The notes under the pieces are model-generated. The model did no database searches, was not told the DNA's origin, and was given only the letters and a program-made list of their open reading frames with translations. From Candidatus Sungiibacteriota bacterium (GTDB lineage: Bacteria > Patescibacteriota > Minisyncoccia > Sungbacterales > SURF-37), in NCBI GenBank assembly GCA_016186145.1, contig JACPMF010000007.1:85302-133579 (forward strand): a DNA stretch of 48,278 bases, in the 5' to 3' direction. The position numbers and the translations under genes are program-made. This document shows, piece by piece, positions 11,365 through 48,146 of the stretch (the first letter of the stretch is position 1; each line of letters begins with the position of its first letter).

Positions 11365-11366
11365 TA

Positions 11367-11449
11367 GAAGCGGATCTATGCGGATGACAACGCGGAAAAA
11401 ACGCGGATCCGCATGAATCCGCGTAGCTATCCGTATTTATCCGCTTCTA
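11367..11449 (+). repeat. 83-nt intergenic repeat, copy 2
   Basis: See 10861-10943. Begins 2 nt after the upstream stop codon (TGA 11362-11364) and ends 2 nt before the ATG at 11452. Confidence 0.9.
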
Positions 11450-11451
11450 AT

Positions 11452-12117: not shown

Positions 12118-12120
12118 TCA

Positions 12121-12209
12121 ACGAATTACGAATCTTTTGCGAATCTACGAATACTCGTTGCTGTCGCGTGAAATATTATTCGTATATTCGTACTGGATTC
12201 GTAATTCGC
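12121..12209. repeat. Imperfect palindrome built from 4 (A/G)CGAAT + 4 ATTCG(T/C) units
   Basis: Left-arm units at 12121, 12128, 12139, 12147. Mirror units at 12178, 12186, 12197, 12204. CGAATTACGAATC (12122-12134) pairs perfectly with 12196-12208. Confidence 0.85.
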
Positions 12210-12227
12210 TGGTGGAGCGAAGCGGAT

Positions 12228-14042
12228 ATGGCCATTCTTGGTTTCGGAAAAAAACAAAGACAAACAGAAGAAATACTCCCGGTTTTTCCGGAAGAAATTT
12301 ATCGCGCGGCGGAAATAACGCTCAAAGACGTCATCGCGCCGTCAGCCCTTGAAATCAGTCCGAATTTTCTGCGTCTTGGAGAGCGTCTCGCGCGCACTCT
12401 TTTTGTATTTTCATATCCCCGGTTTCTGCACACGAACTGGTTCTCGCCGATCATTAATCTCGATAAAATCTTTGATATTTCTATCTTTATTCACCCGGTA
12501 GACACTGCGGTAATACTTCGCGAGCTAAGAAAGCAGGTGGCGCGGGTACAGTCGCAAATTTCCCTCCGCGAAGAAAAAGGCCTCGTTCGAGACCCGATGC
12601 TTGATACGGCGTATCGAGACCTTGAGGTGCTGCGCGACCGCCTCCAGCAGGCGCAGGAACGACTTTTTAACGTCGGCCTCTACATAACGGTCTACGGATC
12701 AAACGAACAAGAACTTGATAAGGCGGAAAACGAAATTCGGTCAATGATGGAATCGAAGCTCGTCTACATAAAACCCGCGCTCTTCCAACAAGAAGAGGGA
12801 TTCAATGCAACCCTTCCGTTAAACACCGACCATTTGCTTATCCATAATTACCTGAACTCGGGCCCGGTATCCTCAACTTTTCCGTTCGTCTCTTTCGATC
12901 TTACCTCCAACAAAGGCGTGCTCTACGGCATCAACCGGCACAACAACTCCTTAATTCTCTTTGACCGCTGGTCCCTCCCAAACGCAAACTCGGTCACCTT
13001 TGCCGTCTCGGGGGCGGGGAAATCATATGCAACAAAACTCGAAATTCTCCGCTCGCTCATGTTCGGCGGAGAAGTCATTGTCATCGACCCGGAACGCGAG
13101 TACAAGTATTTAACCGAGACCGTTGGGGGTGCTTACTTCAATATCTCACTCGCCTCGCCCCATCACATAAATCCGTTCGACCTCCCGCTCCCCCGCGAGG
13201 ATGAATCGCCGGCAGATGTCCTTCGCTCAAACATCGTAAACCTCATTGGGCTTTTCCGCATCATGCTCGGCGGACTCACGCCGACCGAGGACGCCATCCT
13301 CGACCGGGCAATTACCGAAACGTACGCGGCGAGAGACATCACCCCTGAATCGGATTTCACAAAAACAAGCACCCCCACCCTCTCCGACCTTGCCCTAGTC
13401 CTTGCAAACACCGAGGGCGGAGATGAACTTGCGGTGAAACTGAAAAAGTACACCGAAGGAACATGGGCCGGGTTCATAAACCAGCCAACCAACATTAATG
13501 TGCAAAACCGCCTTGTGGCGTTTTCGGTACGGGACATGGAAGAAGAACTCCGGCCCGTCGCCATGTATATCGTTCTCCATTACATTTGGAATATCGTCCG
13601 GTCAGAACTCAAACAGCGCCTGTTGGTGGTAGACGAAGCGTGGTGGCTTATGCGCCAAGAAGACGGCGCATCGTTCCTTTTCGGCATCGCAAAGCGGGCA
13701 CGGAAATATTATCTCGGCCTTGCCACCATTACCCAGGACGTAGCCGACTTTTTGGGTTCGCCCTATGGCCGCCCTATTGTTACAAACTCTTCAATGCAAC
13801 TCCTCCTCAAACAGTCTCCGGCGACGATAAAAACCGTAGTCGAAGCATTCAATCTTACCGAGGAAGAAAAATTTCTGCTCTTGGAAACAGAAGTCGGGGA
13901 GGGCATCTTTTTTGCCGGCTTAAAGCATGTCGCCATCAAGGTTATCGCCTCCTATACCGAGGACCAAATCATCACTACCGACCCCGCGCAGCTTATGGTT
14001 ATCAGAAAAGCAAAAGAAGAGTTTCAGAAGGCGGGACAATAA
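12228..14042 (+). CDS. virB4: VirB4/TrbE-family conjugation/T4SS ATPase
   Basis: ATG at 12228. Walker A is VSGAGKSYA and Walker B is LLVVDEAW, with a VirB4-like N-terminal domain. About 600 aa. Confidence 0.85.
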   Translation: MAILGFGKKQRQTEEILPVFPEEIYRAAEITLKDVIAPSALEISPNFLRLGERLARTLFVFSYPRFLHTNWFSPIINLDKIFDISIFIHPVDTAVILRELRKQVARVQSQISLREEKGLVRDPMLDTAYRDLEVLRDRLQQAQERLFNVGLYITVYGSNEQELDKAENEIRSMMESKLVYIKPALFQQEEGFNATLPLNTDHLLIHNYLNSGPVSSTFPFVSFDLTSNKGVLYGINRHNNSLILFDRWSLPNANSVTFAVSGAGKSYATKLEILRSLMFGGEVIVIDPEREYKYLTETVGGAYFNISLASPHHINPFDLPLPREDESPADVLRSNIVNLIGLFRIMLGGLTPTEDAILDRAITETYAARDITPESDFTKTSTPTLSDLALVLANTEGGDELAVKLKKYTEGTWAGFINQPTNINVQNRLVAFSVRDMEEELRPVAMYIVLHYIWNIVRSELKQRLLVVDEAWWLMRQEDGASFLFGIAKRARKYYLGLATITQDVADFLGSPYGRPIVTNSSMQLLLKQSPATIKTVVEAFNLTEEEKFLLLETEVGEGIFFAGLKHVAIKVIASYTEDQIITTDPAQLMVIRKAKEEFQKAGQ

Positions 14043-14211
14043 AAGGCTTTGTCCAAAATTTGGAGGCGGGCGAACAAATTTTGGTTACAAAACCTTTACC
14101 CTGTTAAATAATTTCGCCTTTGGCGAAATTGCCGCAGAGCGGCATTTAACAGGGTGCTGAATTTTATAGTTTCATTTACTCGCTTTGCTCGTAAATTCAA
14201 ATAAAATTCGC
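14040..14211 (+). repeat. Family-A structured intergenic cassette, copy A (sense to + strand genes)
   Basis: Starts at the virB4 stop codon. Long hairpin 14042-14097, then CCCTGTTAAAT (14099-14109)/ATTTAACAGGG (14144-14154) enclosing two hairpins, then the shared ~60-nt leader ending at ATG 14212. Confidence 0.85.
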
Positions 14212-14763
14212 ATGCCTGAAGCCGCAACACAAACAATCGAGGACGCGCCGGAAGCAAAACAGGTAGAAGAGGGCGAACAACAAGGAGAAAAGAACGCCGA
14301 CGCTAAGAGCGATTCAAAAATATCAACCGCGCAAGCCGGACTTATGATCGGCGTAGCCCTGCTTTTTGACGGGGCCCAGTTTGTAATCGGGGCGCTTGCC
14401 GGACTTACCGTATTTCTCCTCCCGCTCGGCATTGCGGTCGGATGGGTTGTTGATATTTGGGCATGGCTTACATTCTTTTTATGGCTGCATTCGCTTGGAT
14501 TGAGTATGATAAAGAAGGGTGGGGCTAGTGGAGGCGGTTTGGGGAAAGAGCCGTTTGTCATTATCGCGCTCGCGTTCGGTATTGAATTTATACCCATCAT
14601 CAACGCGCTCCCGGCCTGGACCGCAGCCATCGCAACATTGATTTTTAGACAGCGCACCGAAGCCATCCTTCGGACCGCGGGTGGAATAGAAAAAGCGCTG
14701 GAGCCAACATCCAAACTTAAACTCAAAAGTCTATCGTCCAAAACCGACAGCGAAAATGAATAA
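14212..14763 (+). CDS. Membrane protein (4 TM) with acidic N-terminus
   Basis: ATG at 14212 sits directly after the shared leader. The hydrophobic core is in operon orientation. The mirror ORF on the minus strand is rejected. Confidence 0.6.
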   Translation: MPEAATQTIEDAPEAKQVEEGEQQGEKNADAKSDSKISTAQAGLMIGVALLFDGAQFVIGALAGLTVFLLPLGIAVGWVVDIWAWLTFFLWLHSLGLSMIKKGGASGGGLGKEPFVIIALAFGIEFIPIINALPAWTAAIATLIFRQRTEAILRTAGGIEKALEPTSKLKLKSLSSKTDSENE

Positions 14764-15733
14764 ATCCATTTCACAATTTTTCGTTCTCATATTATTACTT
14801 GCCGCTCTTTCCCCGCACGCAGCACTCACCCAAACGCTTCAAAACCTGACCTTGGCGATCAACCCGCCCTTTCCAAAAGCGGAAGAGGAGGTACAGGCGA
14901 AGGCAATTCTTGTCGGAGCCGATCAAGACCTTTCGTCTTTTGAATGGTACAAAGACGGCAAGCAGGACAAATCAGCATCAGGAAAAGGCAAAAATGTTTT
15001 TATATTCAAAGTTGGAAACGGGCCAAGAACAATTATTGACGCCGTCGTCATGACCCCTGACGGGAACCGTCTGTCTGCAACGCGGGCAATCACCAGAGAA
15101 CGTCCGGTTATAATATGGTCGGCAAATACTTCGGTTCCGCTTTGGTACAAGGGCAAACCCCTACCAAGCCCCGGGTCAACCGTAACGATTATGGCGCTTC
15201 CCGGCGCCGGATTCGGAGAGTCCGCGTCGGAGCTCTTCTACTCATGGAACATCAACCTCGAACCGCATCCGGAAGTCTCCGGCATCGGAAAAAACAAATT
15301 CACGCTCAAAACATCGCTGGTCCCCGACGTCAGCCAGCAGATTATCGTCCGAATCTCAAACGCGAACCAGACAATAGCACAAGAAGCAACCCTTATCCTG
15401 CCGACCCGCAGTACAGAGCTTCTGGTATATAGACTTACCCCCGCCGGACTCACCGACTTCTCAAAAACAATATCCGAATTCGGTGGCACGGCTGGCGGGA
15501 TTTTTGACTTCATCGCCACCCCGTTCTATTTTCGCCAAGACCTCGCCTTTCCACCCGTCTTCGTATGGTCTGTCAGCGGACAGGCCTCTCCGAGCGGTGA
15601 TAAACCAAATATCTTAAGCATTAAAACCAACTCCGGAGAATCTTCCGAAAGCGCTGTCTCGATAAGCGCATCGGCCGGCAAAGGAATTGAGAAACAAGAG
15701 GCAGAATATTTATTTAGAGCGCGCTTCCGGTGA
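14756..15733 (+). CDS. Secreted hypothetical protein
   Basis: Signal-peptide-like N-terminus (FFVLILLLAALSPHAAL). Overlaps the upstream stop by 8 nt, consistent with translational coupling. Confidence 0.6.
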   Translation: MNKSISQFFVLILLLAALSPHAALTQTLQNLTLAINPPFPKAEEEVQAKAILVGADQDLSSFEWYKDGKQDKSASGKGKNVFIFKVGNGPRTIIDAVVMTPDGNRLSATRAITRERPVIIWSANTSVPLWYKGKPLPSPGSTVTIMALPGAGFGESASELFYSWNINLEPHPEVSGIGKNKFTLKTSLVPDVSQQIIVRISNANQTIAQEATLILPTRSTELLVYRLTPAGLTDFSKTISEFGGTAGGIFDFIATPFYFRQDLAFPPVFVWSVSGQASPSGDKPNILSIKTNSGESSESAVSISASAGKGIEKQEAEYLFRARFR

Positions 15734-15837
15734 AGCTGAATCATGAATAATGAATTAGAAATCAGAAATAAAAACTACTTTTCGCGTTCATCCGCATTCA
15801 TAATTCATTATTCATAATTCCTGATTCCCGATTTTAA

Positions 15838-16287
15838 ATGTCCAAAACGCCCATCATAACATTCTTTTTCATTGCAATAGCCATACTGCTTGGCGCCGAT
15901 TTCGTTTATGCCGTGACCGTCGAAATTGCCGGCCAAAACGAAGCGGTCCAACAACAGCTTGCCGCGGCAACCGCAAGCGACTATTTGAGCAATCTCTATG
16001 TATGGATGCTCGGCATTGTCGGTCTTGCAAGTTTGTTCGCCCTTATTTACGGCGGCGTTCTTTATATTTTTTCCGGAGCAATTGAGTCAACCTCTGAAGC
16101 GAAACGATGGATGACAAACGCCTTGTGGGGCCTGCTTCTTGCCGCCACATCATGGCTTATTCTCAATACCATCAATCCGGAACTTGTAAAAAAATTCGGT
16201 GTTGGAGAGATCATTTATAAATACTGCATGAAAGCAGCAAAAACCGCGGAAGATAGGGCGGTCTGTGAAAAAACAAGAGAGCAATAA
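15838..16287 (+). CDS. T4SS pilin-like (TrbC/VirB2-like) two-TM protein
   Basis: Signal/TM segment, then two hydrophobic helices (...LGIVGLASLFALIYGGVLYIF...ALWGLLLAATSWLILNTINPEL). Size and context fit a pilin. Confidence 0.55.
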   Translation: MSKTPIITFFFIAIAILLGADFVYAVTVEIAGQNEAVQQQLAAATASDYLSNLYVWMLGIVGLASLFALIYGGVLYIFSGAIESTSEAKRWMTNALWGLLLAATSWLILNTINPELVKKFGVGEIIYKYCMKAAKTAEDRAVCEKTREQ

Positions 16288-17640: not shown

Positions 17641-18099
17641 TCAAGGGTATGGCTTAATCACAACCCTTCTTCCTTCTCCCTCTCCAATTGATTCGGTGGT
17701 TATGTCCGGGTATTCGGAAAGAACAGTATGGACTGTACGCCGCTCGAACGGAGACATTGGTTTTAAAACAATTTCTTTGCGATACAAACGAACCTTCTTC
17801 GCAACACGCTTTACCTCTTCCTTCAACTCCTCAAGACGGTGGAGACGGTATCCATTGATATCAACCAGAAACTTAACCCCCAACTCCCCGGTTTCTTTTT
17901 CGACAAGCCGTTTAATAAGATATTCAAACGCGAAAAGATTCTCCGCCCTGGAACCAATGAGAAGCCGGCCGTCCGGGGTCACAACATTAAAATAAGAGGA
18001 GACGTCTTCCGGACGTCCGCCCTCCTCGACGGCCGCCTCAATACCCGCCCTCTCTAAAACTTCTGCGATTTTTTTAGCGATAAGTTCCGTATGATTCAC
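17641..18099 (-). CDS. jag: Jag/SpoIIIJ-associated RNA-binding protein (KH + R3H)
   Basis: Sits downstream of yidC. The C-terminus ...RRTVHTVLSEYPDITTESIGEGEGRRVVIKP is R3H-like. Confidence 0.8.
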   Translation of the reverse strand: MNHTELIAKKIAEVLERAGIEAAVEEGGRPEDVSSYFNVVTPDGRLLIGSRAENLFAFEYLIKRLVEKETGELGVKFLVDINGYRLHRLEELKEEVKRVAKKVRLYRKEIVLKPMSPFERRTVHTVLSEYPDITTESIGEGEGRRVVIKPYP

Positions 18100-18173
18100 T
18101 TCGTTGTAGAGCGAGAGCCGCGAGGTGGGCGTTGAGTTAGAAAAGAAGGGCTGGGAACTTGCTAATAGTTCAA

Positions 18174-18932
18174 CTAACCGTTCTGCACCTGATTCTTAAT
18201 CCCTGGCTCTTTAAACTTTTTTCTTAACCAAATTTGCTCCACTATAGCAAGGAGATTCATTATTGTCCAGTAGAGCGGCAAAGCCGCCGGCAACGAGAAT
18301 GACCAGATAGTAATAAGTACCGGAAAAAAATACTTCATCTGCAACGAAAGAATTTTTGAAAGATCCGGCTCATGCGGTTTCGCGCTCCTTAGTGTCAGCG
18401 ATTCCGGCTGCGGAACAAGGCGCGCCTGCAGAAATTGCGACGCGCCCGCGAGAAATCCAATGATGTAGTTTTTTTCGGTCAGGCTCACTATGCCAAACAT
18501 GGTGGCGCTAAAAAATTCCGGTACTGCAACGACGGAGTAAAGCGCGGAAACATCTAGCGGCGAAAGCCCCCGCCAGAATACATTGTAGAGCGCTATAAGA
18601 AGCGGGAGTTGGACAAGAATAGGCAGGCACCCGGAAAACGGATTCACTTTTTCTTGCGCATAAAGCTCCATAAGACGGCGCGCTTGTTCATCTTTCTTCT
18701 CTTTATACTTTTCCTGTATTTCCTTTATCTTCGGGCCAAGTGAGCGCATCGCCGCCTGGCTTTTAAACATCTTGGCTGTGGCCGGGAAAAGCAAGATCCG
18801 CACGAGAACGGTGAGAGAAATAATCGCAAGGCCAAGGTCCGGAAAGGGAAGAAGTGAATATATAAAAATAAGCCCGTTAAAGAGCGGACGGTATAATATT
18901 TCATGGTATGCGCTATAAAGCATCTCGGGCAT
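18174..18932 (-). CDS. yidC: Membrane protein insertase YidC (short form)
   Basis: Five-TM core with ...NPFSGCLPILVQLPLLIALY... in the conserved rnpA-yidD-yidC-jag order. Confidence 0.9.
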   Translation of the reverse strand: MPEMLYSAYHEILYRPLFNGLIFIYSLLPFPDLGLAIISLTVLVRILLFPATAKMFKSQAAMRSLGPKIKEIQEKYKEKKDEQARRLMELYAQEKVNPFSGCLPILVQLPLLIALYNVFWRGLSPLDVSALYSVVAVPEFFSATMFGIVSLTEKNYIIGFLAGASQFLQARLVPQPESLTLRSAKPHEPDLSKILSLQMKYFFPVLITIWSFSLPAALPLYWTIMNLLAIVEQIWLRKKFKEPGIKNQVQNG

Positions 18933-19028
18933 GTTCTAGATACGAATTTCAAAGCTCAAATGATAATAGAATCAGGAATCAAGAATTAAGAATTATGAAT
19001 ACGAAGGGCGGTCTTTATTCCTAATTCA

Positions 19029-19286
19029 TTATTCATGATTCATGATTCGATATTTCCCTTCCACCGGGTCATATCCTCCTCTAGAAAACGGGGTGCAGCG
19101 TATAACTCTGTAAAGCGACAACATGCTCCCTTGTATCAGTCCATATTGACTAACAGCTTGATGTGCGTATTCTGAACAAGAAGGAAAAAAACGACACCTG
19201 CCACCGAAGGATATAAACCAATCGCTGTGGTCGGAAGAAAATGTGCGCTGCCAAATTCGGATGAGTGTTAAAACAATGGTTGTCAT
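19029..19286 (-). CDS. yidD: Membrane protein insertion efficiency factor YidD
   Basis: CRFFPSCSEYAHQAV...RCTPFSRGGYDP is the YidD signature. ATG at 19286 overlaps the rnpA stop (ATGA). Confidence 0.85.
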   Translation of the reverse strand: MTTIVLTLIRIWQRTFSSDHSDWFISFGGRCRFFPSCSEYAHQAVSQYGLIQGSMLSLYRVIRCTPFSRGGYDPVEGKYRIMNHE

Positions 19287-19630
19287 GATATAAGATTTGC
19301 TCTTACAAAAAGTTGCGCGAGAAGACAATAGAAGTTGCTTCTGGTAGCTTCCGTGGACGGCTTTCGGAAAATAACGGCAACATCATGCCCGCCCGCAATG
19401 ACAGATTGATGTTTGCGGACCCATTCAGCGGCACGACGCCGGATCTTGTTCCGTAAAACACTCCTCTTCGCTATCTTTTTGGGCACGATAAAAACAAAAC
19501 GGCTTCCTTTTTCTGTAGACCGCGCGAAGTACCGCATGGTAGCCAACTCATTTGAAACAATCCTGCCGCGGCGGACCGCCGCACCCACCTCAGAAGATGC
19601 CCGCAAACGGTTCACTCGAGGGAGAGCCAT
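19283..19630 (-). CDS. rnpA: RNase P protein component
   Basis: Start MALPRVNRL at 19630. Basic KKIAKRSVLRNKIRRRAAEWVR motif. Sits between rpmH and yidD. Confidence 0.85.
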   Translation of the reverse strand: MALPRVNRLRASSEVGAAVRRGRIVSNELATMRYFARSTEKGSRFVFIVPKKIAKRSVLRNKIRRRAAEWVRKHQSVIAGGHDVAVIFRKPSTEATRSNFYCLLAQLFVRANLIS

Positions 19631-19664
19631 AAGAGTCAAATAACCAATTACCGTTTGCCGGTAA

Positions 19665-19802
19665 TTAAGAAACGGCAAGACGCGCTCTCCTTTTCTTTCT
19701 GCGGCGGGTAAGGACCCTCCGCCCTCCTGCGGTGCGGGATCGCACCAAAAAACCATGGGTGCGCTTCCGTTTTCTTTTTTTGGGCTGATAGGTAACCGAC
19801 AT
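19665..19802 (-). CDS. rpmH: 50S ribosomal protein L34
   Basis: Hand translation gives [45 protein letters not shown]. Below the ORF-track size cutoff. Confidence 0.9.
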
Positions 19803-20064
19803 ATTTTAAATACTACCGTAAACAGTGAACGATGAACAGGGAACAAGACCTACCAACACGCAGTAGTCCACCGCCTCCTTTTTTCGTTTACTGATTCTCG
19901 CAATTAACAACATATAAACAGTTTGTTCAGAAAAGGAAGGTTTTCTTATTGTGGTTTGTTTAACGATAGTATTGGTATACTTGATAACAGAGCGTCAAGA
20001 CTGACGACGGAGAAATAATTACAAGTCTTGGTTCTAAAATAAATCCATATAAACAGGAGGCACT

Positions 20065-21435
20065 ATGGATTACCGCGAACTTTGGAAAGCAGCGCTTGGG
20101 GAAATAGAACTTGCGATCCCAAGACCGAGTTTTATTACATGGTTCAAAGAAACGGCTGTTTTTGAGATTTCTGATGGAATCGTAACAATATCGGTCCCAA
20201 ACGGTTTTGCAAAGGAGTGGTTGCAATCGAAATACAACAAATTCATTATCCGTGCCTTGAGAAATGTGGCGGACGATAGTGTCCGAGATGTTGCTTTTGT
20301 GGTTGGAAGGGCCTCGGTAGACGGAACCGGTGTAAAAACCAAGGAGCGTCAGAAAGTAAGGCTTATCCCAACCGTAAGCGATGAAATGCAGCTAAAAGAT
20401 CTGCATATTGACCCGGAAACCGGCCTTAACCCGCGCTATACATTTGAAAACTTTATCGTCGGGTCTTTCAACGAACTCGCGCATGGTGCTGCGCGCGCCG
20501 TTGTCCAAAACCTCGGTTCGGCCTATAACCCCCTTTTTATCTTCGGGGGTGTTGGTTTGGGAAAAACCCACCTCATACAGGCAATAGGAAACGAGATTGC
20601 CGGGAGCCACGGCGCAAAAGTCAGATATGTTACATCCGAAAAATATATGGGGGAGATCGTCGAGGCGCTTTCAAACCAGACAATCAATCAGCTGAAGGAA
20701 CGCTACCGGAAAGTCGACCTTCTCATTATGGACGACATCCAATTCATCGCAAGAACAGAGAAAATGCAGGAAGAATTCTTCCATACATTCAACGTCCTAT
20801 ACCAGCAAAATAAACAAATTGTAATATCCTCCGACCGTCCGCCGTCCGCAATCCCGACGTTAGAGAACCGCCTCCGCTCGCGTTTTGAAGGAGGGTGTCT
20901 TATTGACGTTGGGGAGCCGGATCTTGAAACACGCCTGACCATACTAAAAGCAAAAGCCGGTGAAAAAGGGATTGCCCTTCCGGAAGACGTATTTCTTCAC
21001 ATTGCGTCGGTCATCAAAAATAACATCCGGGAGCTTGAAGGGGCCCTTACCCGTCTCGCGCTCAGCGCCCGGACATCTTCCGCAACACCAACCCTCGAAG
21101 AGACAAAGAAAATACTCGAACAAGTAGCCCAAGCGCCAAAAAAATTCACTTCTCCTAAAAAAGTAATCAAGGTTGTCGCCGACTTCTACGAGATCATGGA
21201 AAAAGATCTCGTCAACCCAAGTAGAAGAAAAGAAATCGTGAAACCGCGCCAAATTGCGATGTATATTCTCCGTGAGGAGCTAAAGTGCTCATACCCTTTC
21301 ATTGGTGAAAAACTCGGAAAAAAAGACCACACGACAGCAATCCACGCGTGCAAAAAAATAGACGGGGAACTAAAAACAGACCTCGATTTACAAAACTCGA
21401 TAAAACTAATCAAAGAAAAAATCTACTCCGTCTAA
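20065..21435 (+). CDS. dnaA: Chromosomal replication initiator DnaA
   Basis: AGGAGG SD. Walker A is GGVGLGKTHL, with AAA+ domain III and a C-terminal DNA-binding helix (...KDHTTAIHACKKI). Confidence 0.95.
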   Translation: MDYRELWKAALGEIELAIPRPSFITWFKETAVFEISDGIVTISVPNGFAKEWLQSKYNKFIIRALRNVADDSVRDVAFVVGRASVDGTGVKTKERQKVRLIPTVSDEMQLKDLHIDPETGLNPRYTFENFIVGSFNELAHGAARAVVQNLGSAYNPLFIFGGVGLGKTHLIQAIGNEIAGSHGAKVRYVTSEKYMGEIVEALSNQTINQLKERYRKVDLLIMDDIQFIARTEKMQEEFFHTFNVLYQQNKQIVISSDRPPSAIPTLENRLRSRFEGGCLIDVGEPDLETRLTILKAKAGEKGIALPEDVFLHIASVIKNNIRELEGALTRLALSARTSSATPTLEETKKILEQVAQAPKKFTSPKKVIKVVADFYEIMEKDLVNPSRRKEIVKPRQIAMYILREELKCSYPFIGEKLGKKDHTTAIHACKKIDGELKTDLDLQNSIKLIKEKIYSV

Positions 21436-21697
21436 CAAGCTGTTCAATAAGGTGTGGGCGTACTTGTGTGTTTCTTTGTTAATAACTAGATGCGTATCGT
21501 GTTGAAAAAAAATGCTTTTTTTGTTTTTTAAAAAGATATGTTTTTTGTCCGCGCTATTTCCCAAGAATCTCCACATCTTTTCCATAAAGAGAAAATAAAA
21601 AATATTTCCTTAAAGCGCCGTACTACAACGTTATCCACCAGTTTTTCTTTCTAATAACAATAATAAATTTAAATTAAATATATTATTATAGTTACCT
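21436..21697. promoter_or_regulatory. Candidate oriC/DUE region between dnaA and dnaN
   Basis: TTATCCACC at 21631-21639, TCTCCACAT-like box near 21570, and a very AT-rich run at 21650-21690. Confidence 0.45.
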
Positions 21698-22795
21698 ATG
21701 AAAATAATCTGTACGAGAAACAACCTTCGCAATACCTTCCAGCTCGTAGAGCGTTTTACCGGAAAGAGCCTTACCCTTCCTATTCTTGGTAGTATATTTT
21801 TTGAGGCCGACGAGAAAAAAATACGGTGCGTGGCGACAAACCTTGAGGTTGGTATTGAGGTTGTTATGCCCGGGAAGGTTATCAGAGGCGGATCCGTTGC
21901 CATACCCGGAAGAATCGCGAACACTCTTGTTCAGTCCTTGGACGAGGAGAATGTTTTATTAGAAGAAAAAGACGGAGCGATCACTATAAAAACGGACTCT
22001 TCAAGTTTTACTCTTCAGGGGTTGTCTCCAAAGGATTTCCCGCCGCTTCCAAAGATCAAAAGGGAGCACGAATTCAGTATTCCAGCTAACATTCTTAAGA
22101 AAGGGCTTGTCCAGGTTCTTCCCGCCGTGTCTGTTTCTGACTTTAAGCCGGAGCTTTCTGGGGTTTATTTGAAGCGTGATGCGCGGGCGGTTACACTCGC
22201 CGCCACCGACTCTTTTCGTCTTGCTGAAAAACTTTTTCAGTTGCAAACACCCGGCGATGCTGTTTCTTGCATAATCCCTTGGAAGACATGCCAGGAGTTA
22301 TCAAGGATACTTCCGGAGGACGGAGAGGAATATGTTACCGTTCGCCAAGGAGAGAACCAGGTTATGTTTGATTTTTCAGAGGTTCATATGGTGTCGCGTC
22401 TTATCGACGGAACATACCCTGACTATGTGTCGATCATCCCTAAAGATTTTTCTTCTCATCTCGCTGTTCCGAGGGAAGATCTTGTAAAAAGGGTGAGAGC
22501 GGCAAGCGTTCTCTCGTCGAAACTGAACGATATCGTGTTGAGCTCGTCCGAGGACGAGGTGTTTATTGAAACCGCGAACTCTGAGTTAGGAAAGAGCCGT
22601 ATTCGGCTTTTGACCAAGGGAAGAGGAAAGGAAACAAAAGTTTCGTTCAACTTTCGTTACCTTTCAGACGGGCTTGAGGCAATAGACGGGGAAGAAGCGC
22701 TTATTTCGTTGAATGGCGACTCGTCACCGGCGCTCGTTTCCAGTTCCCAGGACCAGTCCTTCAGGTATATCCTTATGCCGATCCGGAGCGTCTGA
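21698..22795 (+). CDS. dnaN: DNA polymerase III beta sliding clamp
   Basis: 365 aa, immediately after dnaA, with a three-domain clamp-like pattern (...RLIDGTYPDY...). Confidence 0.9.
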   Translation: MKIICTRNNLRNTFQLVERFTGKSLTLPILGSIFFEADEKKIRCVATNLEVGIEVVMPGKVIRGGSVAIPGRIANTLVQSLDEENVLLEEKDGAITIKTDSSSFTLQGLSPKDFPPLPKIKREHEFSIPANILKKGLVQVLPAVSVSDFKPELSGVYLKRDARAVTLAATDSFRLAEKLFQLQTPGDAVSCIIPWKTCQELSRILPEDGEEYVTVRQGENQVMFDFSEVHMVSRLIDGTYPDYVSIIPKDFSSHLAVPREDLVKRVRAASVLSSKLNDIVLSSSEDEVFIETANSELGKSRIRLLTKGRGKETKVSFNFRYLSDGLEAIDGEEALISLNGDSSPALVSSSQDQSFRYILMPIRSV

Positions 22796-27391: not shown

Positions 27392-27490
27392 ATCATATAT
27401 TAAGTGTTAAATCCGAATTAGGAATCAGGAATTAAGAATCGTGGAGATGAATGATACAAAAAGAGGTTTTTGTTCCCGGTTCATAGTTCG

Positions 27491-28219
27491 TTATTCATCA
27501 TTCATGTTCGTAAACACTTCCTGTATGTCGTCGTGTTCGTCGAGTTGCTCTTCAAGTTTTTCAAGTTTTGCCTTCGCTTCCGGCGGAACAGAGATTGGGT
27601 TTTGGGGCACATAGTCGATGTGCGGCTCCCCAGCCGGTATTTTCTTTTCAGCAAGCCGCGCTTTGAACGTATCAAGGGCTGCCGGATCAACATACGCCGT
27701 GTATCCTTCGGCGAACTCACGGACATCTTCTGCGCCGGCCTCAATGAGTTTTAGCACAAAGTCATCTAAGGGCCGCGCGATTGTTTCCTTTGGGAAGTCA
27801 ACTGCACCGGTTTTTTTAAACATCCAGCTTACACTACCTTCTGCGGCGAGCTTCCCGTCGTTTTCGGAAAGGAGATGTTTTATCTCGTTCGTGGTCCTGT
27901 TTCTGCTGTCGGTAACGCCGAAAATTAAAAGCGCAGTGCCTTCCGGGCCATAGGCCTCGTAACGCACTTCTTCAAGGTTTTCCTTGGCTCCTGCTCCCGC
28001 GGCTCGTTCTATGGCCCTCGTTACGTTTTCTTTCGGCATTCCTGCGGACCGCGCCGTCTCCACTGCCATGCGGAGCTTTGGGTTCATTGCCGGGTCCGCC
28101 CCTTTTTCTTTTGCGGCAATGCTGATGAGCCGCGCCATTTTCGAGAAAATCTTTCCTTTTTTGGCGTCGGTAAGGGCTTTTTTGTGTTTTATCTGTGCCC
28201 ATTTTGAGTGTCCGCTCAT
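27491..28219 (-). CDS. YebC/PmpR-family transcriptional regulator
   Basis: ATG at 28219. MSGHSKWAQIKHKKALTDAKKGKIFSK... is the family hallmark. Confidence 0.9.
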   Translation of the reverse strand: MSGHSKWAQIKHKKALTDAKKGKIFSKMARLISIAAKEKGADPAMNPKLRMAVETARSAGMPKENVTRAIERAAGAGAKENLEEVRYEAYGPEGTALLIFGVTDSRNRTTNEIKHLLSENDGKLAAEGSVSWMFKKTGAVDFPKETIARPLDDFVLKLIEAGAEDVREFAEGYTAYVDPAALDTFKARLAEKKIPAGEPHIDYVPQNPISVPPEAKAKLEKLEEQLDEHDDIQEVFTNMNDE

Positions 28220-32764: not shown

Positions 32765-33148
32765 TTAATGCGAAGCGTGTTCTATGTCAGCCAGCGCCGC
32801 CGGATTTGCCTGAAGCCGCTCAAAAGGGATTTCGCCGCTGCACTTTGCGCAAACCCCATAAATGCCCTTTTCCATTCGTTCAAGAGCTTCATTTACTTCT
32901 TTAAGGCGGTCCTCCAACGCAAACTCTTCGGAAAGCTCTGCTCCGTATTCTTCGATTTCGTCCTGCCGTTCTTCAAGGGCGCCCGAAGAAAAGCTCGATT
33001 TTTCTCCCATTGACGGAAAACGGGCGTCCCAGTCCCCTTTCATTTTTGGATCTTTGGTTGCAAAGGACGCAAGCAATTTCTCCAAGTTTTGTTTTTCCGC
33101 GAGGAGTTTATTTTTCAGTTCGGATAAAATTTTTGGGTCAAGAGCCAT
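32765..33148 (-). CDS. DksA/TraR-family protein with degenerate zinc finger
   Basis: Coiled-coil N-terminus. ...YGVCAKCSGEIPFERLQANPAA... has only the first CxxC pair. Confidence 0.65.
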   Translation of the reverse strand: MALDPKILSELKNKLLAEKQNLEKLLASFATKDPKMKGDWDARFPSMGEKSSFSSGALEERQDEIEEYGAELSEEFALEDRLKEVNEALERMEKGIYGVCAKCSGEIPFERLQANPAALADIEHASH

Positions 33149-33334
33149 GCGAATTTTATTTATGAGCCTTAGCGAATAACTATAAAATTCAGCACCCTGT
33201 TAAATAATTTCGCTGAAGGCGAAATTCCTCTGCCCAAAAAATCATAGATTTATTGGGCAGAGGATTTAACAGGGTAAAGGTTTTGTAACCAAAATTTGTT
33301 CGACATTTCTCCAAATTTTGGACAAAGCCCTTTA
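33149..33334 (-). repeat. Family-A structured intergenic cassette, copy B
   Basis: Runs from the upstream stop (33332-33334) to the downstream ATG (33148). CCCTGTTAAAT at 33195-33205 and ATTTAACAGGG at 33264-33274. Carries the shared leader. Confidence 0.85.
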
Positions 33335-36743: not shown

Positions 36744-37241
36744 TTAGCGTGTTCGCAGAAGAAATTTGGGTTCAGAACCAAGGTCGGTAAAATCATCAGC
36801 GGCCTCCTTTATTTTTTGCGAAGCGGTGCGGTCAAAAGCCATAACTTCTACCCGCCGCCCTCTTCCTTTCAAGTATTCTACGAGCGGAATGAAATCTCCG
36901 TCCCCGGAAACGATCACGAGCGTATCCACGATTTCCGACGTGCGAACGGCGTCAAGCGCCATCCCAACGTCCCAGTCCGCCTTTTTGGCTCCGCCGAAAA
37001 ATTCTTGCAGGTCTTTCACCCGAATCTCGATCCCCGATTTCTCTAGTGCTTCAAAAAAAGCTTTTTCCTCTCCGGTTTTAGTGCGTACTACATAGGCAAA
37101 AGCCCTGATTAATTTTCTCCCGGCAACCGCCTCCTTTACCACTTCACGGAAATTTACTCTTGCGTTGAGCAGGTTTCTCGCCGAGTGGTACATGTTTTGG
37201 ACATCAATGAAGACGGCGACGCGTTGTTCTTTGTGTTTCAT
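36744..37241 (-). CDS. NYN/LabA-like domain protein
   Basis: ATG at 37241. VAVFIDVQNMYHSARN...VIVSGDGDFIPLV is the LabA/NYN signature. Confidence 0.75.
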   Translation of the reverse strand: MKHKEQRVAVFIDVQNMYHSARNLLNARVNFREVVKEAVAGRKLIRAFAYVVRTKTGEEKAFFEALEKSGIEIRVKDLQEFFGGAKKADWDVGMALDAVRTSEIVDTLVIVSGDGDFIPLVEYLKGRGRRVEVMAFDRTASQKIKEAADDFTDLGSEPKFLLRTR

Positions 37242-37297
37242 GCCAATGTTGTCTAAATTTGCAAGCCCAATGTGCAGCAAATTTAACTACAACATTG

Positions 37298-37445
37298 AGC
37301 ACCCTGTTAAATAATTTCGCCTCTGGCGAAATTCCTCTAACAAATAAACCTTTTGCTTTATTTGTTAGAGGATTTAACAGGGTAAAGGTTTGCTAACTAA
37401 ATTTTGTTCGTCCTGCGGACTCCAAAATTTGGAGCAAGCCCTTTA
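37298..37445 (-). repeat. Family-A structured cassette, copy C (lacks the shared leader)
   Basis: Starts at the rpsO stop (37443-37445). CCCTGTTAAAT at 37302-37312 and ATTTAACAGGG at 37372-37382. Confidence 0.85.
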
Positions 37446-37709
37446 TTTTCTCAATCCCAGCTTTTTAATCAATGAGTTGTAACTTCTTGTATTTTCGCGC
37501 CTGAGGTAGTCAAGAAGTTTTTTGCGGCGCGCGACCATGCCCAAAAGCCCCCTGCGGGAATGGTTGTCCTTTGGATGTTTCTTGAGGTGGTCAGTGAGTT
37601 GCTTTATCTCCGTGGTGAGCAGTGCGGTTTGAACTTCAACAGAACCGGTGTCGGTCGGGTGGTCTTTGAATTTGTCCATTATCTTAGCTTTTTCTTTTGA
37701 GGTGAGCAT
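37443..37709 (-). CDS. rpsO: 30S ribosomal protein S15
   Basis: ...[29 protein letters not shown]... is the S15 signature. 88 aa. Confidence 0.95.
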
Positions 37710-37884
37710 GCGAATTTTGTTTGAATTTATGAGCGAAGCGAGTAAATGAAACTATAAAATTCAGCACCCTGTTAAATAAAACCTTCGGTTTTCTTTTGCC
37801 GCAGGCAAAAGATTTAACAGGGTAAAGGTTTGCCAACTGCGATTTCTGCGCCTACAGCTTGAAATCGCAGGCCAAGCCCTTTAT
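37710..37884 (-). repeat. Family-A structured cassette, copy D (with shared leader, immediately upstream of rpsO)
   Basis: CCCTGTTAAAT at 37767-37777 and ATTTAACAGGG at 37812-37822. All three variable hairpins differ in sequence from the other copies but are still perfectly paired. Confidence 0.85.
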
Positions 37885-37920: not shown

Positions 37921-37942
37921 ACAAAAACCCCGCGTTGCGGGG
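37921..37942 (-). terminator. Rho-independent terminator of the 37953-38564 gene
   Basis: On the minus strand, CCCCGC-AAC-GCGGGG followed by TTTTTGTTTT. Confidence 0.75.
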
Positions 37943-37952
37943 CAGGGTGTTT

Positions 37953-38632: not shown

Positions 38633-38780
38633 AGCCGAAGGTGGGAATCCTCTTCCTCTGAAATTTTGCGCGCCCCTCGATATAACTCGGGACAGGCAAA
38701 ATTTCTCCCCCAGAGCCCGGGTTTCCAAAATCGTAAAGCAGTTTACGATTTTGGAATACCCTTCGATTCCCATCTTCACC
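38633..38780. ncRNA. Family-B structured element, copy 1 (three-way junction; tRNA-3'-end-like terminal inverted repeats)
   Basis: P1 is TGGGAATC (38642-38649)/GATTCCCA (38765-38772). There is a 15-bp hairpin TTCCAAAATCGTAAA/TTTACGATTTTGGAA and a 10-bp stem GAAATTTTGC/GCAAAATTTC. About 60 nt are identical to 48016-48137. Confidence 0.5.
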
Positions 38781-38829: not shown

Positions 38830-39063
38830 AGCCGAAGATGGGAATCGAACCCACATTTCTACTTTACGAAAGTAATGTCCCGATTTTGTTCAAACTTTTG
38901 AAGCCAGGGGTGGGAGTCGAACCCACAACCTCTGCTTTACGAAAGCATTGCTCTGCCATTGAGCTACCCTGGCTGCAAAAGTTTGAACAAAATCGAGGAT
39001 CCTCGATTCGCCAACCGCGCTCCGCGCGGGCGAATCGGGACTCTACCATTGAACTACTTCGGC
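38830..39063 (-). tRNA. Interrupted tRNA-Thr(CGU)-like gene: 23-nt 5' part and 48-nt 3' part separated by a 163-nt insertion that contains another tRNA
   Basis: The 5' part 39063-39041 is GCCGAAGUAGUUCAAUGGUAGAG. The 3' part 38877-38830 is CAUUACUUUCGUAAAGUAGAAAUGUGGGUUCGAUUCCCAUCUUCGGCU. Joined, they give a 71-nt cloverleaf. Confidence 0.65.
38902..38973 (-). tRNA. tRNA-Thr (anticodon CGU), intact, no encoded CCA
   Basis: GCCAGGG UA GCUC AAUGGCA GAGC A AUGCU UUCGUAA AGCAG AGGUU GUGGG UUCGACU CCCAC CCCUGGC U. All four arms pair (one A/G mismatch at 27:43). Confidence 0.92.
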
Positions 39064-48003: not shown

Positions 48004-48146
48004 GTGAGCGGGTAAGGGGAATCCTCTTCCTCCGAAATTTTGCGCGTGCCTCCGGCACAGGCAAAGTTTCTCCTCCAGAGCCCGGGTTTCCAAAATCGTA
48101 AAGCAGTTTACGATTTTGGAATACCCTTCGATTCCCCCATTATCAC
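48004..48146. ncRNA. Family-B structured element, copy 2
   Basis: P1 is GGGGAATC (48016-48023)/GATTCCCC (48130-48137). Same 15-bp hairpin as copy 1. The P3 tip is replaced by GTGCC-TCC-GGCAC. Terminator-like hairpins flank it at 47973-47996 and 48161-48189. Confidence 0.5.

Follow-up and report, generated by a model that had tools for sequence, protein, structure and literature searches.

The DNA elements described here share features with several known systems. Free-standing GIY-YIG homing genes (phage T4 seg, intron-encoded I-TevI), whose nuclease domain is a classical homing-endonuclease fold, likewise have a GIY-YIG gene as their sole gene, lie between or inside host genes, spread horizontally, and leave remnants; free-standing homing endonucleases normally also have a DNA-binding domain. 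MITEs and their parent IS are similar in that the MITEs are short, non-coding, multi-copy sequences that share their inverted repeats with a coding parent, arise by internal deletion, and are intergenic, nestable, and assembly-breaking. REP/BIME sequences with their RAYTs are likewise dispersed extragenic palindromes at gene ends; their DNA is recognised in its folded form, and they may contribute to mRNA stability. The inverted terminal repeats of AAV have the same T-shaped order A-[B-B']-[C-C']-A', with 3-nt loops and a flip/flop order of the small arms. At the protein level, the nearest family is that of the UPF0213/YhbQ-like proteins, for whose solved members we know of no assigned function or mobile context.

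The stretch of DNA analysed here (48 kb, hereafter the window) contains four hairpin-rich cassettes of ~175-205 nt, each of which makes up a complete stop-to-start spacer. A very compact selfish DNA element is the probable source of these cassettes, which would be its non-autonomous, MITE-like copies. Each cassette was divided into three modules, namely a hairpin (H1), a T-shaped core in which 11-bp arms CCCTGTTAAAT/ATTTAACAGGG surround two abutting perfect triloop hairpins, and a second hairpin (H3), which is an H1-type hairpin in inverted copy that terminates at an ATG. The 17-mer CCTTTACCCTGTTAAAT has four exact matches in the window compared with 0.15 expected, and the 28-mer ATTTAACAGGGTGCTGAATTTTATAGTT, with at most three mismatches allowed, has four matches compared with 0 expected. 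The features of the four copies, with scores for the H1 covariance model R1, are as follows.

14040-14214, + strand: cassette copy A (H1, T-shaped core, and H3 including the ATG)
12168-14042, + strand: gene upstream of copy A, VirB4/TraG-like; its stop codon is the cassette TAA at 14040-14042
14040-14098, + strand: copy A H1, a three-tier hairpin (R1 74.5 bits; fold; covariation)
14099-14154, + strand: copy A T-shaped core, left arm CCCTGTTAAAT at 14099-14109 and right arm ATTTAACAGGG at 14144-14154
14110-14143, + strand: copy A interior, AATTTCGCC hairpin and GCCGC hairpin
14155-14214, + strand: copy A H3, inverted H-type hairpin TGCT...GCA (R1 on the antisense strand only, 18.3 bits)
14212-14214, + strand: ATG of the gene downstream of copy A, a membrane-protein gene
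33146-33334, - strand: cassette copy B (H1, T-shaped core, and H3 including the ATG)
33275-33334, - strand: copy B H1 (R1 78.5 bits); TAA at 33332-33334 is the stop of a 297-aa gene
33195-33274, - strand: copy B T-shaped core, arms at 33264-33274 and 33195-33205
58 nt between these arms, - strand: copy B interior, CCTCTGCCCAA hairpin then AATTTCGC hairpin (flipped polarity)
33146-33194, - strand: copy B H3 (fold and stem table), with the ATG at 33146-33148 of a DksA/TraR-type zinc-finger gene
37239-37445, - strand: cassette copy C (H1, T-shaped core, and H3 including the ATG)
37383-37445, - strand: copy C H1 (R1 79.7 bits); TAA at 37443-37445 is the rpsO stop codon
37302-37382, - strand: copy C T-shaped core, arms at 37372-37382 and 37302-37312
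59 nt between these arms, - strand: copy C interior, 15-bp CCTCTAACAAATAAA hairpin then AATTTCGCC hairpin (flipped polarity)
37239-37301, - strand: copy C H3, CAATGTTGT/ACAACATTG variant (R1 on the antisense strand, 22.6 bits, E 0.004)
37239-37241, - strand: ATG of the gene downstream of copy C, an NYN-domain gene
37707-37883, - strand: cassette copy D (H1, T-shaped core, and H3 including the ATG)
37823-37883, - strand: copy D H1, CTGCGATTTC/GAAATCGCAG variant (R1 70.8 bits)
37767-37822, - strand: copy D T-shaped core, arms at 37812-37822 and 37767-37777, with CTTTTGCC and AAAACC hairpins inside
37707-37766, - strand: copy D H3 (R1 on the antisense strand, 14.6 bits), with the ATG at 37707-37709 of rpsO

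An earlier note on the window had described four copies with 10-bp inner stems, an 11-bp perfect inverted repeat, and enclosed hairpins of unrelated sequence, and all of these were found again, as was the swap of the AATTTCGC hairpin to the other side in copy A relative to copies B and C. The four loci given there stand, but copy C is longer, as its third module reaches the ATG at 37239-37241. The part 3' of the 11-bp repeat is also a hairpin (H3), closing at the start codon, which the earlier description had missed. In copies A, B, and C the upstream gene does end in frame at the cassette TAA, as had been claimed for three copies. In copy D it is not a stop codon in use; the upstream gene there ends 70 nt earlier and has its own terminator (37927-37948). 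The cassette does recur as a genuine stop-to-start unit, fitting exactly in 19/26 and 20/29 cassettes, and sets gene boundaries in these genomes from stop to start without a Shine-Dalgarno sequence; none precedes the cassette-fed genes of the window, and one is present at dnaA.

H1 and H3 are copies of one hairpin type in opposite orientations, R1 matching H3 on the antisense strand. The proposal that hairpin pairing is kept by compensatory rather than random change was borne out for H1, in which 95.3% of cells are paired and 17 of 24 pairs are doubly changed, a value reached by none of 500 shuffles. The H3 stems are also compensated, including a change from TGC/GCA to TAC/GTA (stem table). 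A U-G pair in the outer H1 stem had been thought to be possible only on the antisense strand, but this stem has two registers, the continuous one of which has one wobble and one mismatch on each strand, and outside the outer stem the wobbles of H1 favour the sense strand (9 versus 2-4). Together with a conserved asymmetric internal loop, the covariation of H1 argues for selection on a folded single strand, which could be RNA. Such selection is not explained by a nuclease model of the kind set out below.

Two abutting perfect hairpins fill 63 of 78 core interiors, triloops are found in 106 of 138 core hairpins, and the interior pairs comprise 901 Watson-Crick pairs and 20 G-U pairs. Both interior polarities occur, even within single genomes, so that the segment between the 11-bp repeats is indeed found in both orientations, as the earlier note had anticipated from the window, here on contigs and at different loci. 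In copy A the AATT hairpin is on the left, which is the polarity of the ORF-bearing cassettes described next, and copy A is colinear with these in alignment A5.

The same arms bound a 280-293-bp unit in related CPR genomes, in Bdellovibrionota, and in Bacteroidota, and the only gene of this unit is predicted to encode an 85-aa stand-alone GIY-YIG nuclease of the UPF0213/YhbQ type. On the coding strand, the complete element reads TT(C/T)A-CCCTGTTAAAT, a leader of ~15-30 nt, the 85-codon ORF, and tAT TTA ACA GGG-TAA. The right TIR consists of the last four codons of the nuclease gene (Y-L-T-G), and the left TIR lies within the 5' leader. The window cassettes are homologous to the ORF-bearing element: in alignment A5 they are colinear with ORF-bearing cassettes from three CPR genomes (L089, L199, L206), H1, left arm, right arm, H3, and ATG all aligning and the ORF alone being missing from the window copies, and the arms CCCTGTTAAAT/ATTTAACAGGG with the adjoining AATTTT are common to window cores and ORF-bearing units. 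The encoded protein matches the Pfam GIY-YIG family (PF01541) with 56-57 bits and has a weak match to TIGR01453. It consists of a catalytic domain and a 15-aa tail, with no recognisable separate DNA-binding domain, and the catalytic-type residues Y6, Y17, G19, R27, H31, and E63 are invariant in 15 sequences. Among solved structures, the UPF0213 proteins 1zg2 and 1ywl come closest, with the same size and a single domain, at an E-value of only 1e-6; the ...KNRLKSYLTG tail of the clade and the bounding inverted repeats set the present proteins apart from that family. The nuclease family comprises >2,600 close homologues and ~6,000 clusters at 50% identity. Read-through 89-aa forms and fused N-terminal extensions in databases are artefacts of the element ends.

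The arms are constrained as DNA. In 9 of 9 distinct genes, the synonymous sites of the four arm codons show no difference, while the neighbouring codons vary, and the two arms co-vary through three independent compensatory double changes, in L229 (TCCTG/CAGGA), in L232 (GTCAAAT/ATTTGAC), and in L226 (CCCCGTCAAAT/ATTTGATGGGG), the last at the price of a Thr>Met replacement. These changes could equally serve the pairing of the 5' and 3' ends of an mRNA.

The element has spread across phyla. Nuclease amino-acid identity is 69-86% among Patescibacteria, Bdellovibrionales, and Odoribacter; for comparison, the best match of the window PNPase has at most 60% identity. A published list of transfers out of Patescibacteria includes a GIY-YIG gene (PMC12455944). 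The partner arm is present at 91 of 116 matches to the 17-mer, across many phyla, and cores also occur nested and in tandem. In one case an ORF-bearing unit is inserted in another gene, a PF05635 gene broken by it into pieces of 60 and 51 aa, and units are also found without the scaffold between unrelated housekeeping genes. Each nuclease protein examined lies in a different housekeeping gene context, and each exact nuclease sequence is found at one locus only, so that a recent burst of ORF-bearing copies is not directly indicated. The 17-mer loci, compared at the nucleotide and protein levels, have no flanks orthologous to the window except for NYN-pnp in L102, and among 80 rpsO-pnp loci from metagenomes the element is present in none, the best relative being 60% identical. 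No ORF-bearing copy lies inside the 48-kb window, and a trans-acting source of the nuclease in this genome is assumed.

The window's own metagenome was examined as contigs from runs X1-X4 of groundwater samples. Intact, internally deleted, and gene-less forms of the unit coexist there, and the joints form a series of internal deletions that remove 64 to 262 nt of the ORF, one of which has 258 nt replaced by two hairpins. The arms have a word depth of 480-1700, compared with 20-220 for the ORF and 8-40 for unique flanks. The depth of cores amounts to 30-60x the flanks, with values of 620-880 for the core of copy C compared with 8-30 in the flanking sequence, and gene-less cores outnumber ORFs several-fold to tens-fold, at many unrelated loci. 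Presence/absence alleles were found for both copies next to rpsO. In a strain variant from run X4, positions 37241-37440 of copy C are exactly absent (200 nt; joint 37240>37441), and on a variant contig of X4 positions 37710-37882 of copy D are replaced by 9 nt (joint 37709>37883). The empty site of copy C shows no target-site duplication (TAAAG|TG). At L226, an imperfect AATCTT/AATGCTT repeat is possible as a target-site duplication and is not required.

Compared with the systems introduced above, the present element differs from free-standing homing genes in that it encodes a bare 85-aa UPF0213-type catalytic domain without a DNA-binding domain, has 11-15-bp TIRs, one of them built from its own last codons, and is accompanied at unrelated loci by many gene-less derivatives. 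The unit is carried on chromosomes of uncultivated bacteria and is absent from the phage and plasmid collections searched: the nuclease has no match in PHROGs, PADLOC, or the plasmid or phage collections, and the 17-mer occurs on a single contig in IMG/VR. As with MITEs, the gene-less copies share TIRs with a coding parent and are short, multi-copy, and non-coding, with no ORF in the cores. The parent, however, encodes a GIY-YIG nuclease alone, with no DDE, HUH, serine, or tyrosine transposase, a target-site duplication was not found, and the interior is formed by two perfect triloop hairpins rather than a random remnant. An associated transposase was not found among 120 neighbouring genes, which are housekeeping genes with no family enriched. 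Unlike REP/BIME sequences, the cassettes have no family GTAG/CGTC tag and no Y1 (RAYT) gene; the Y1 family is absent from the 120 neighbouring genes and from the window's genes, and the tag is absent from the window copies. Their arms are conserved across phyla and they have a nuclease-coding parent. The resemblance to AAV is an analogy of shape only, as the present sequences are internal to bacterial chromosomes, with far shorter stems, no Rep/HUH protein, and no linear genome end.

Several other explanations were weighed against descent from a selfish element. If the unit were a homing gene, the nuclease would cut an unoccupied H1/H3 scaffold or another dispersed repeat and double-strand-break repair would copy the unit in from an occupied copy. 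Gene-less cores would then be occupied sites that have degenerated or become immunised as the unit invades, decays, and is lost in a homing cycle. The GIY-YIG fold with its TIGR01453 match, the single locus of each exact protein, the graded series of ORF deletions in one community, and the slot between H1 and H3, which takes several different inserts bounded by inverted repeats and beginning CCC...GGG, are consistent with homing. We nevertheless regard it as somewhat unlikely, given that scaffold-free units lie between unrelated housekeeping genes and in the PF05635 gene with no homologous empty repeat there, that at such sites the arms belong to the insert and not to the target, and that the DNA-binding domain usual in free-standing homing endonucleases is missing. 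A vertically kept host nuclease gene, for example in repair, with the arms forming an mRNA-closing stem (5' leader with 3' end) for stability or autoregulation and the short cores being dead pseudogene stumps not mobilised in trans, would fit the complementarity of the arms (with G-U on the coding strand in L226), the conserved catalytic residues, and the one locus per exact protein. This appears quite improbable in view of the excess of gene-less cores at many unrelated, nested, and tandem positions, the cross-phylum identity of near 70-80%, the unit inside another gene, and the C-A combinations on the coding strand of L232 and many cores, which are pairable only on the other strand. An inverton, in which the downstream gene is controlled through recombinase-driven flipping of the segment between the 11-bp repeats, would account for both interior polarities, even in one genome. 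Known invertases need a longer segment for synapsis than the interiors of 17-59 nt, however, the interior has no promoter, no recombinase gene is associated, and the polarity differences lie between loci (contigs), making this explanation very improbable.

The earlier note had read the cassettes as structured RNA, whether a terminator, a processing site, or an antisense RNA. This is not supported as the main reading, because the arms are TIRs of a protein-coding element, one of them being the end of the nuclease gene itself, because the flanking modules are mutual inverted copies like the terminal repeats of mobile DNA, and because Rfam gave no match and the argument from the strand of the U-G pair fails. 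With Rfam 15, at gathering and permissive thresholds, no cassette match was obtained in the window, where only tRNAs and noise were reported, and no family matched at 18 related loci. A host cis-acting RNA cassette, folding in a polycistronic transcript to stabilise or terminate the upstream gene at its 3' end, to serve as a processing site, and to give the downstream gene a structured Shine-Dalgarno-less leader, with the link to the nuclease secondary, is likewise unlikely. It would explain the strong H1 covariation and compensated H3 stems, the sense-strand wobbles of H1, the fixed orientation to genes with its exact stop/start fit, a solo H3 immediately 5' of the rplK ATG in L030, and the cassette-fed genes without a Shine-Dalgarno sequence, unlike dnaA. 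Arguing against it, promoter and terminator scans of the cassettes gave nothing above shuffled expectation, with no U-tract after the hairpins and a TTAACA/TATAGT promoter-like pair spaced by just 13-15 nt; H3 as an inverted H1 would yield different RNAs from one strand; cores in other phyla have the opposite orientation to genes; in the parent element the arms belong to the coding sequence; the interior hairpins are nearly pure Watson-Crick with triloops; and cassette-less strains exist. The narrower idea of a cis-regulatory RNA of one gene family was rejected because the genes downstream of related elements are unrelated (L10, purF, lexA, HU, and carbamate kinase). An added RNA-level role may exist for H1 and H3.

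Our preferred reading of the window copies as MITE-like relics of a selfish element is based on the shared and co-varying arms, the splitting of a gene, and the deletion forms and empty alleles in the metagenome. The window copies would have lost the ORF and gained two short perfect hairpins in its place, so that the arms form the closing stem of a T-shaped three-way structure. In this CPR lineage, the unit occupies the central slot of a CPR-specific scaffold of two inverted ~60-nt hairpin modules (H1 and H3), and the H1-core-H3 cassette acts as a single unit of insertion and deletion. The nuclease is suggested to recognise and cut folded (cruciform or T-shaped) ends, thereby mobilising both the unit that encodes it and, acting in trans, the copies without a gene. 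Filler hairpins may persist because the T shape is kept, and a cassette may be tolerated because the stop context and the ATG are restored for its neighbours. The exact stop-to-start fit is not predicted by simple insertion and counts against the main reading. So do the lack of an ORF-bearing copy in the window and of a recognisable DNA-binding domain in the protein, the failure to establish a target-site duplication, the single locus of each exact protein, the equally good fit of the arm changes to mRNA end pairing, and the selection on a folded single strand in H1.

More tentatively, and as a possibility that we place short of an even chance, the element may represent a new class of mobile element in which a bare 85-aa GIY-YIG (UPF0213-type) nuclease is the sole mobility protein, is structure-specific for its own cruciform or T-shaped TIRs, and mobilises T-shaped gene-less copies in trans, which CPR bacteria have taken up within a paired-hairpin scaffold as whole stop-to-start spacers. 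No prior description of such an element was found in the literature searched by keyword and sequence string, the sole double match to the sequence strings being a primer and its target. If such a class exists, the UPF0213/YhbQ-like family would gain its first assigned biological role, and with it a testable function for a large stand-alone GIY-YIG protein family of unknown role; the GIY-YIG fold would be added to the enzymes of TIR-bounded prokaryotic elements; and few protein-coding mobile elements known from bacteria would be as small. An assembly-breaking, cross-phylum repeat of CPR and groundwater genomes would then stem from a ~290-bp selfish gene and not from an RNA motif, and the 85-aa protein with its 55-nt T-shaped substrate would be a simple model for structure-specific DNA recognition.

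Other candidate systems were also compared with the cassettes. An IS200/IS605-type element was rejected, as H1 and H3 are inverted and not direct and the parent gene is GIY-YIG and not TnpA (Y1)/TnpB. For an integron attC, the order of the boxes (GTTAAAT ... ATTTAAC) is the reverse of RYYYAAC ... GTTRRRY and the flanks are housekeeping genes. Only the sequence TGTTAAAT resembles the XerD arm; a Xer/dif site was set aside, since the arms face the wrong way and are 17-290 nt apart compared with a central region of 6-8 bp. A LexA box (CTGT..ACAG), considered as one copy is upstream of lexA in L114, does not fit the varying spacing, and TIGR-Tas arrays are tandem and next to Tas genes, in contrast to the dispersed single units here. 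The window spans a dnaA-dnaN origin-like region, and cassette orientation is confounded with gene orientation. In one MAG, a core lies 78 nt inside the end of an IS-like repeat having at least seven copies, where it is probably a passenger.

Direct reading and alignment resolved the four places in the window into one cassette type that can be aligned end to end. The 17-mer CCTTTACCCTGTTAAAT occurs exactly four times in the window versus 0.15 expected, and a 28-mer located 3' of the second arm occurs four times versus 0 expected. Each cassette comprises a hairpin (H1), a core with 11-bp arms, and a second hairpin (H3), and the four copies lie between the following genes:

14040–14214, + strand: copy A; upstream, a VirB4/TraG-like ATPase; downstream, a membrane protein
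33146–33334, − strand: copy B; upstream, a hypothetical protein; downstream, a DksA/TraR-type protein
37239–37445, − strand: copy C; upstream, rpsO; downstream, an NYN-domain gene, then pnp
37707–37883, − strand: copy D; upstream, a hypothetical gene with an intrinsic terminator; downstream, rpsO

In gene-sense orientation all four copies start with TAA(A)GGGCTT and end with ...GCATG, the ATG of which is the start of the downstream gene. The ORF frames upheld the claim that this TAA is the real in-frame stop codon of the upstream gene in copies A, B, and C. Among 26–29 CPR cassettes, 19 use the H1 TAA to terminate a long upstream ORF in frame, and in 20 a long ORF starts at the ATG after H3. 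The four-copy cassette of the earlier note and its details proved correct by direct reading, alignment, and word counts save for three points. Copy C, placed at 37298–37445, was drawn too short, as the cassette continues to 37239. The arms and the hairpins that they enclose were recognized, but the stretch beyond the second arm was not described as a hairpin. Finally, the argument that a U-G pair in the outer stem points to the antisense strand fails, since the H1 outer stem has one wobble and one mismatch on each strand. Being equal on both strands, this stem gives no information on strand; the H1 G-U pairs outside it (sense 9 versus 2–4) favor the sense strand.

An intrinsic terminator (37927–37948, − strand; CCCCGCAACGCGGGG followed by a T run) lies 20 nt past the stop of a 203-aa gene and ~40 nt before copy D; as the organism uses such ordinary terminators, the cassette would be needless for termination. 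The genes rpsO and pnp are usually adjacent, and here the NYN-domain gene (a predicted RNase; 36744–37241) separates them. The NYN-pnp pair is also present in a locus from another genome (L102), and the window encodes RNase Y, the RNase P protein, and PNPase. Copy A sits directly 3' of the VirB4/TraG P-loop ATPase gene in a T4SS-like cluster (9824–16287; PrgI, a TraC-like gene, the VirB4/TraG P-loop ATPase, and a T4SS pilin), and in a Parcubacteria genome (L198–L205) a cassette bearing an ORF lies immediately 5' of PrgI in the homologous cluster (L199 1501–3270).

H1, bounded by TAAAGGGCTT and CCTTTA, adopts a common fold in 26 cassettes drawn from the window and CPR metagenome-assembled genomes: a 5-bp outer stem, a bulge, a 5-bp stem, and a 2-nt 3'-side bulge lead to a 10-bp stem, an internal loop (5'-NA and 5'-GNA), and a small apical hairpin. 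In a 21-sequence alignment 95.3% of cells are paired and 17 of 24 pairs carry changes in both partners. Covariation scores 0.447 versus at most 0.087 with the partners slid, and none of 500 shuffles reached the observed values, which bears out the proposal of hairpins that vary in sequence yet stay paired. H3 is a long hairpin, from TGCT to GCATG, with the start codon at or within its 3' foot. Its stems GAATTTTAT/ATAAAATTC, CAATGTTGT/ACAACATTG, and CAAATTTGT/ACAAATTTG co-change, and a TGC/GCA stem becomes TAC/GTA, altered on both sides. The H1 covariance model, which finds the four window H1 copies at 71–80 bits, matches H3 regions on the opposite strand only, at 22.6, 18.3, and 14.6 bits in the window and at up to 45 bits in other genomes. 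H3 is thus an inverted copy of an H1-kind module, and the cassette layout is H → core ← H.

Among the genomes matched by the H1 model, the H1/H3 scaffold occurs in CPR-type genomes only, and other inverted-repeat-bounded inserts can occupy the slot between H1 and H3; the scaffold is a layer separate from the core. These alternative inserts (L030 4900–5160, − strand; L055 7400–7667; L026 1713–1900) are ~110 nt long and have different inverted repeats, e.g., CCCGCCCAAGTTTTTGG...CCAAAAATTTGGGTGGG and CCCAGCACCCAGC...GCTGGGT, likewise with a CCC start and a GGG end. A solo H3-type hairpin at L030 4139–4184, with neither H1 nor core, stands directly 5' of the rplK ATG, and the rplK start codon is paired within its stem (CATGTTTGT...ACAAACATG).

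The core is an 11-bp perfect repeat, CCCTGTTAAAT/ATTTAACAGGG, flanking an interior. In 63 of 78 distinct interiors two hairpins abut and leave no base unpaired, either between each other or beside the arms, 106 of 138 interior loops are 3 nt, and interior pairs number 901 Watson-Crick versus 20 G-U. The core is a predicted T-shaped palindrome, and the scarcity of G-U pairs and the prevalence of triloops fit a DNA structure better than RNA. A 17-mer scan of one genome per species returned at least 116 loci, and the partner arm was present at 91 of the 116 listed. Labelled taxa among the matches listed include many Patescibacteria as well as Desulfobacterota, Planctomycetota (Scalindua, Brocadiaceae), Omnitrophota, Elusimicrobiota, Atribacteria, Cloacimonadota, Bdellovibrionales, and an Odoribacter. 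Nested (L015, L037) and tandem (L005) copies occur, as do 73–81-nt interiors. Flanks outside the CPR cassettes read TTCA-arm...arm-TAAAGG, and an unrelated gene often follows directly, with its ribosome-binding site and ATG. Such cross-phylum sequence conservation is not what would be expected of a structured RNA with variable hairpins, and a coding partner was therefore sought.

Additional H1-model matches included cassettes in which an ORF follows the left arm in place of the two hairpins. This ORF-bearing unit spans 280–293 bp from arm to arm and consists of the left arm, AATTTT... with a short AT-rich leader, an 85-codon ORF, the right arm, and the stop. The right arm forms the last four codons of the ORF (tAT TTA ACA GGG, Y-L-T-G), and in the common arrangement the stop is the TAA of TAAAGG. 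The product is a GIY-YIG catalytic domain (PF01541 at 56–57 bits) with the UPF0213 proteins BH0048 and EF2693 as closest solved relatives and no match in phage or defense libraries. The product is invariant at its GIY, YIG, Arg, His, and Glu positions, with 69–86% identity between copies from CPR, Bdellovibrionales, and Odoribacter. There are more than 2,600 close homologues (85–89 aa) from Patescibacteria, mostly unnamed or annotated as "GIY-YIG nuclease family protein"; an exhaustive search yielded ~6,000 clusters at E ≤ 1e-3, with many representatives truncated or fused. The 89-aa forms are read-through into H3 in cassettes that have TGCT in place of the stop. In an alignment of window and ORF-bearing cassettes (A5), the window's four cassettes are colinear with three ORF-bearing cassettes except for the ORF, and no ORF copy was found within the 48-kb window. 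At the level of sequence, these comparisons show the window copies to be gene-less derivatives of an inverted-repeat-bounded GIY-YIG unit.

In anammox genomes (Scalindua/Brocadiaceae; L033, L042, L076, L104, L116) the core interior is AT-rich and 74–80 nt long, the inverted repeat reaches 21 bp (GCAACCTTTACCCTGTTAAAT); a T-G position within it and a GTAGCC outside it are conserved. The interior ends (...TATAAAATATG.. / ..AATAAAACTT) look like remnants of the nuclease leader and gene 3' end. Seven contigs of the MAG JAHJSK01 (L047, L048, L054, L056, L057, L074, L094) end in one repeat, running 95 nt from a core to ...TTTGACA, with two copies of GTAGGACATTTCTAAATTGCT; by appearance it is one end of an IS present in at least 7 copies, which carries the core 78 nt inside its terminus. 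An IS30-like transposase fragment adjoins one copy of this repeat.

Contexts and alleles show that the GIY-YIG unit moves horizontally, that it inserts both between genes and inside them, and that it decays through internal deletions. The ORF-bearing unit lies in varied housekeeping contexts (adh/unit/mraZ, PrsW/unit/HSP20, folD/unit/glyA, glycosyltransferase/unit/epimerase, and hypothetical/unit/PrgI), often with spacers of just 4–23 nt, and at L226 206–876 it splits a PF05635 (23S rRNA intervening-sequence protein) gene into 60 + 51 aa. In the groundwater metagenomes from which the window derives, examined as contigs, word depth is 480–1700 for the arms, 20–220 for the ORF, and 8–40 for unique flanks. 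ORF deletions of 64, 71, 87, 147, 170, and 258–262 nt occur on these contigs, one of which has GCCTATGGCAAAATTCCCGCCTTGCGGG (two filler hairpins) in place of 258 nt. One contig joins 37240 to 37441 and omits copy C precisely (200 nt); this allele reads ...TAAAG/TGAAAC (joint at the slash), and the NYN gene start becomes GTG. Another contig has 9 nt in place of the 173 nt of copy D. Given these alleles without copies C and D, strains differ by insertion or deletion of the H1-core-H3 cassette as a whole. A GIY-YIG gene is listed in a published survey among transfers out of Patescibacteria (PMC12455944).

Nine distinct genes share the same four arm codons down to every synonymous site, whereas the Arg, Leu, Lys, and Ser codons just before them vary, and arm changes are matched by the partner arm: the pair is TCCTGTTAAAT/ATTTAACAGGA in L229, GTCAAAT/ATTTGAC in L232, and CCCCGTCAAAT/ATTTGATGGGG in L226, where two double changes and one G-T pair come at the cost of Thr>Met. 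Distant homologues with other C-termini are without the left arm. The arms are thus constrained as paired DNA or RNA, beyond codon constraint; in one rival explanation they would be the mRNA-closing stem of a vertical gene. A host RNA cassette, another rival, would be consistent with the covariation and conserved asymmetric loop of the H1/H3 scaffold, which show selection on a folded strand. No Rfam family matches any cassette part, and simple promoter and terminator scans gave nothing above chance. Because H3 mirrors H1, we favor a role at the DNA level, with the two modules serving as extended terminal repeats, but they may also act as RNA.

An inverton is a further, unlikely rival for the core. 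The polarity of the core is marked by an AATTT-starting hairpin, as this is homologous to the leader start of the ORF-bearing unit; the hairpin adjoins the left arm in 22 and the right arm in 5 H-cassettes, and the left arm in 14 and the right arm in 9 cases elsewhere. Both polarities occur within three other genomes and within the window, where the interior of copy A is indeed reversed relative to B and C, with the hairpin on the opposite side; these are comparisons between loci. Homing of the nuclease unit into a pre-existing repeat is a further rival. The element is like a free-standing homing endonuclease gene in its workings, but has terminal repeats and no DNA-binding domain.

We favor a mobile unit whose enzyme acts on shape. 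The nuclease carries no DNA-binding domain, UvrC and SLX1 provide a precedent for bare GIY-YIG/URI domains acting on DNA structure, and the gene-less derivatives retain a perfect three-way shape even as their sequences differ; on these grounds, the enzyme is proposed to recognize the folded ends (a cruciform or single-stranded T) and to cut there. Copying or movement of the cut unit would follow, and the T-shaped copies without the gene would borrow the nuclease in trans. The unit may also limit harm to its neighbors: the left arm has stops in two frames, the right end supplies TAA and AAGG(AG) ahead of the next gene, and the CPR scaffold provides the A of the downstream ATG.

A MITE with its parent is likewise similar in workings, but the parent here is without a known transposase class, and no target-site duplication was established. 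Parvovirus terminal repeats are similar in shape and in having two configurations, as an analogy only. REP/RAYT, IS200/IS605, attC, and dif were rejected as the identity of the element. No description of the element was found in the literature searched by sequence and keywords, which is no proof of absence. Since it lacks defining features of both MITEs and homing endonucleases and no description was found, there is a fair chance that it represents a new class of mobile element.

An origin-like region at 17641–22795 of the window carries jag (R3H), yidC, and rnpA on the − strand and dnaA and dnaN on the + strand, with a TTATCCAC box at ~21633 in the AT-rich dnaA-dnaN spacer; the cumulative GC-skew minimum falls at ~20–22 kb. 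The cassette-bearing gene blocks on either side face this region and would therefore be head-on to replication. A second intergenic repeat family has 87-nt copies at 10858–10944 and 11364–11450 that are 97% identical, carry GAAGCGGAT...ATCCGCTTC, and bracket a PrgI-like gene (10948–11364), resembling the way in which copies C and D bracket rpsO. A third repeat of ~130 nt (38643–38771 and 48017–48136; 92–96% identical) contains the palindrome TTTCCAAAATCGTAAAGCAGTTTACGATTTTGGAA, and one of its copies is close to a tRNA at 38902–38973. An AT-rich short-period repeat (ATTCATAATTCATTATTCATAATTC...) occupies three intergenic sites, at 15796–15834, 19017–19055, and 27479–27517.
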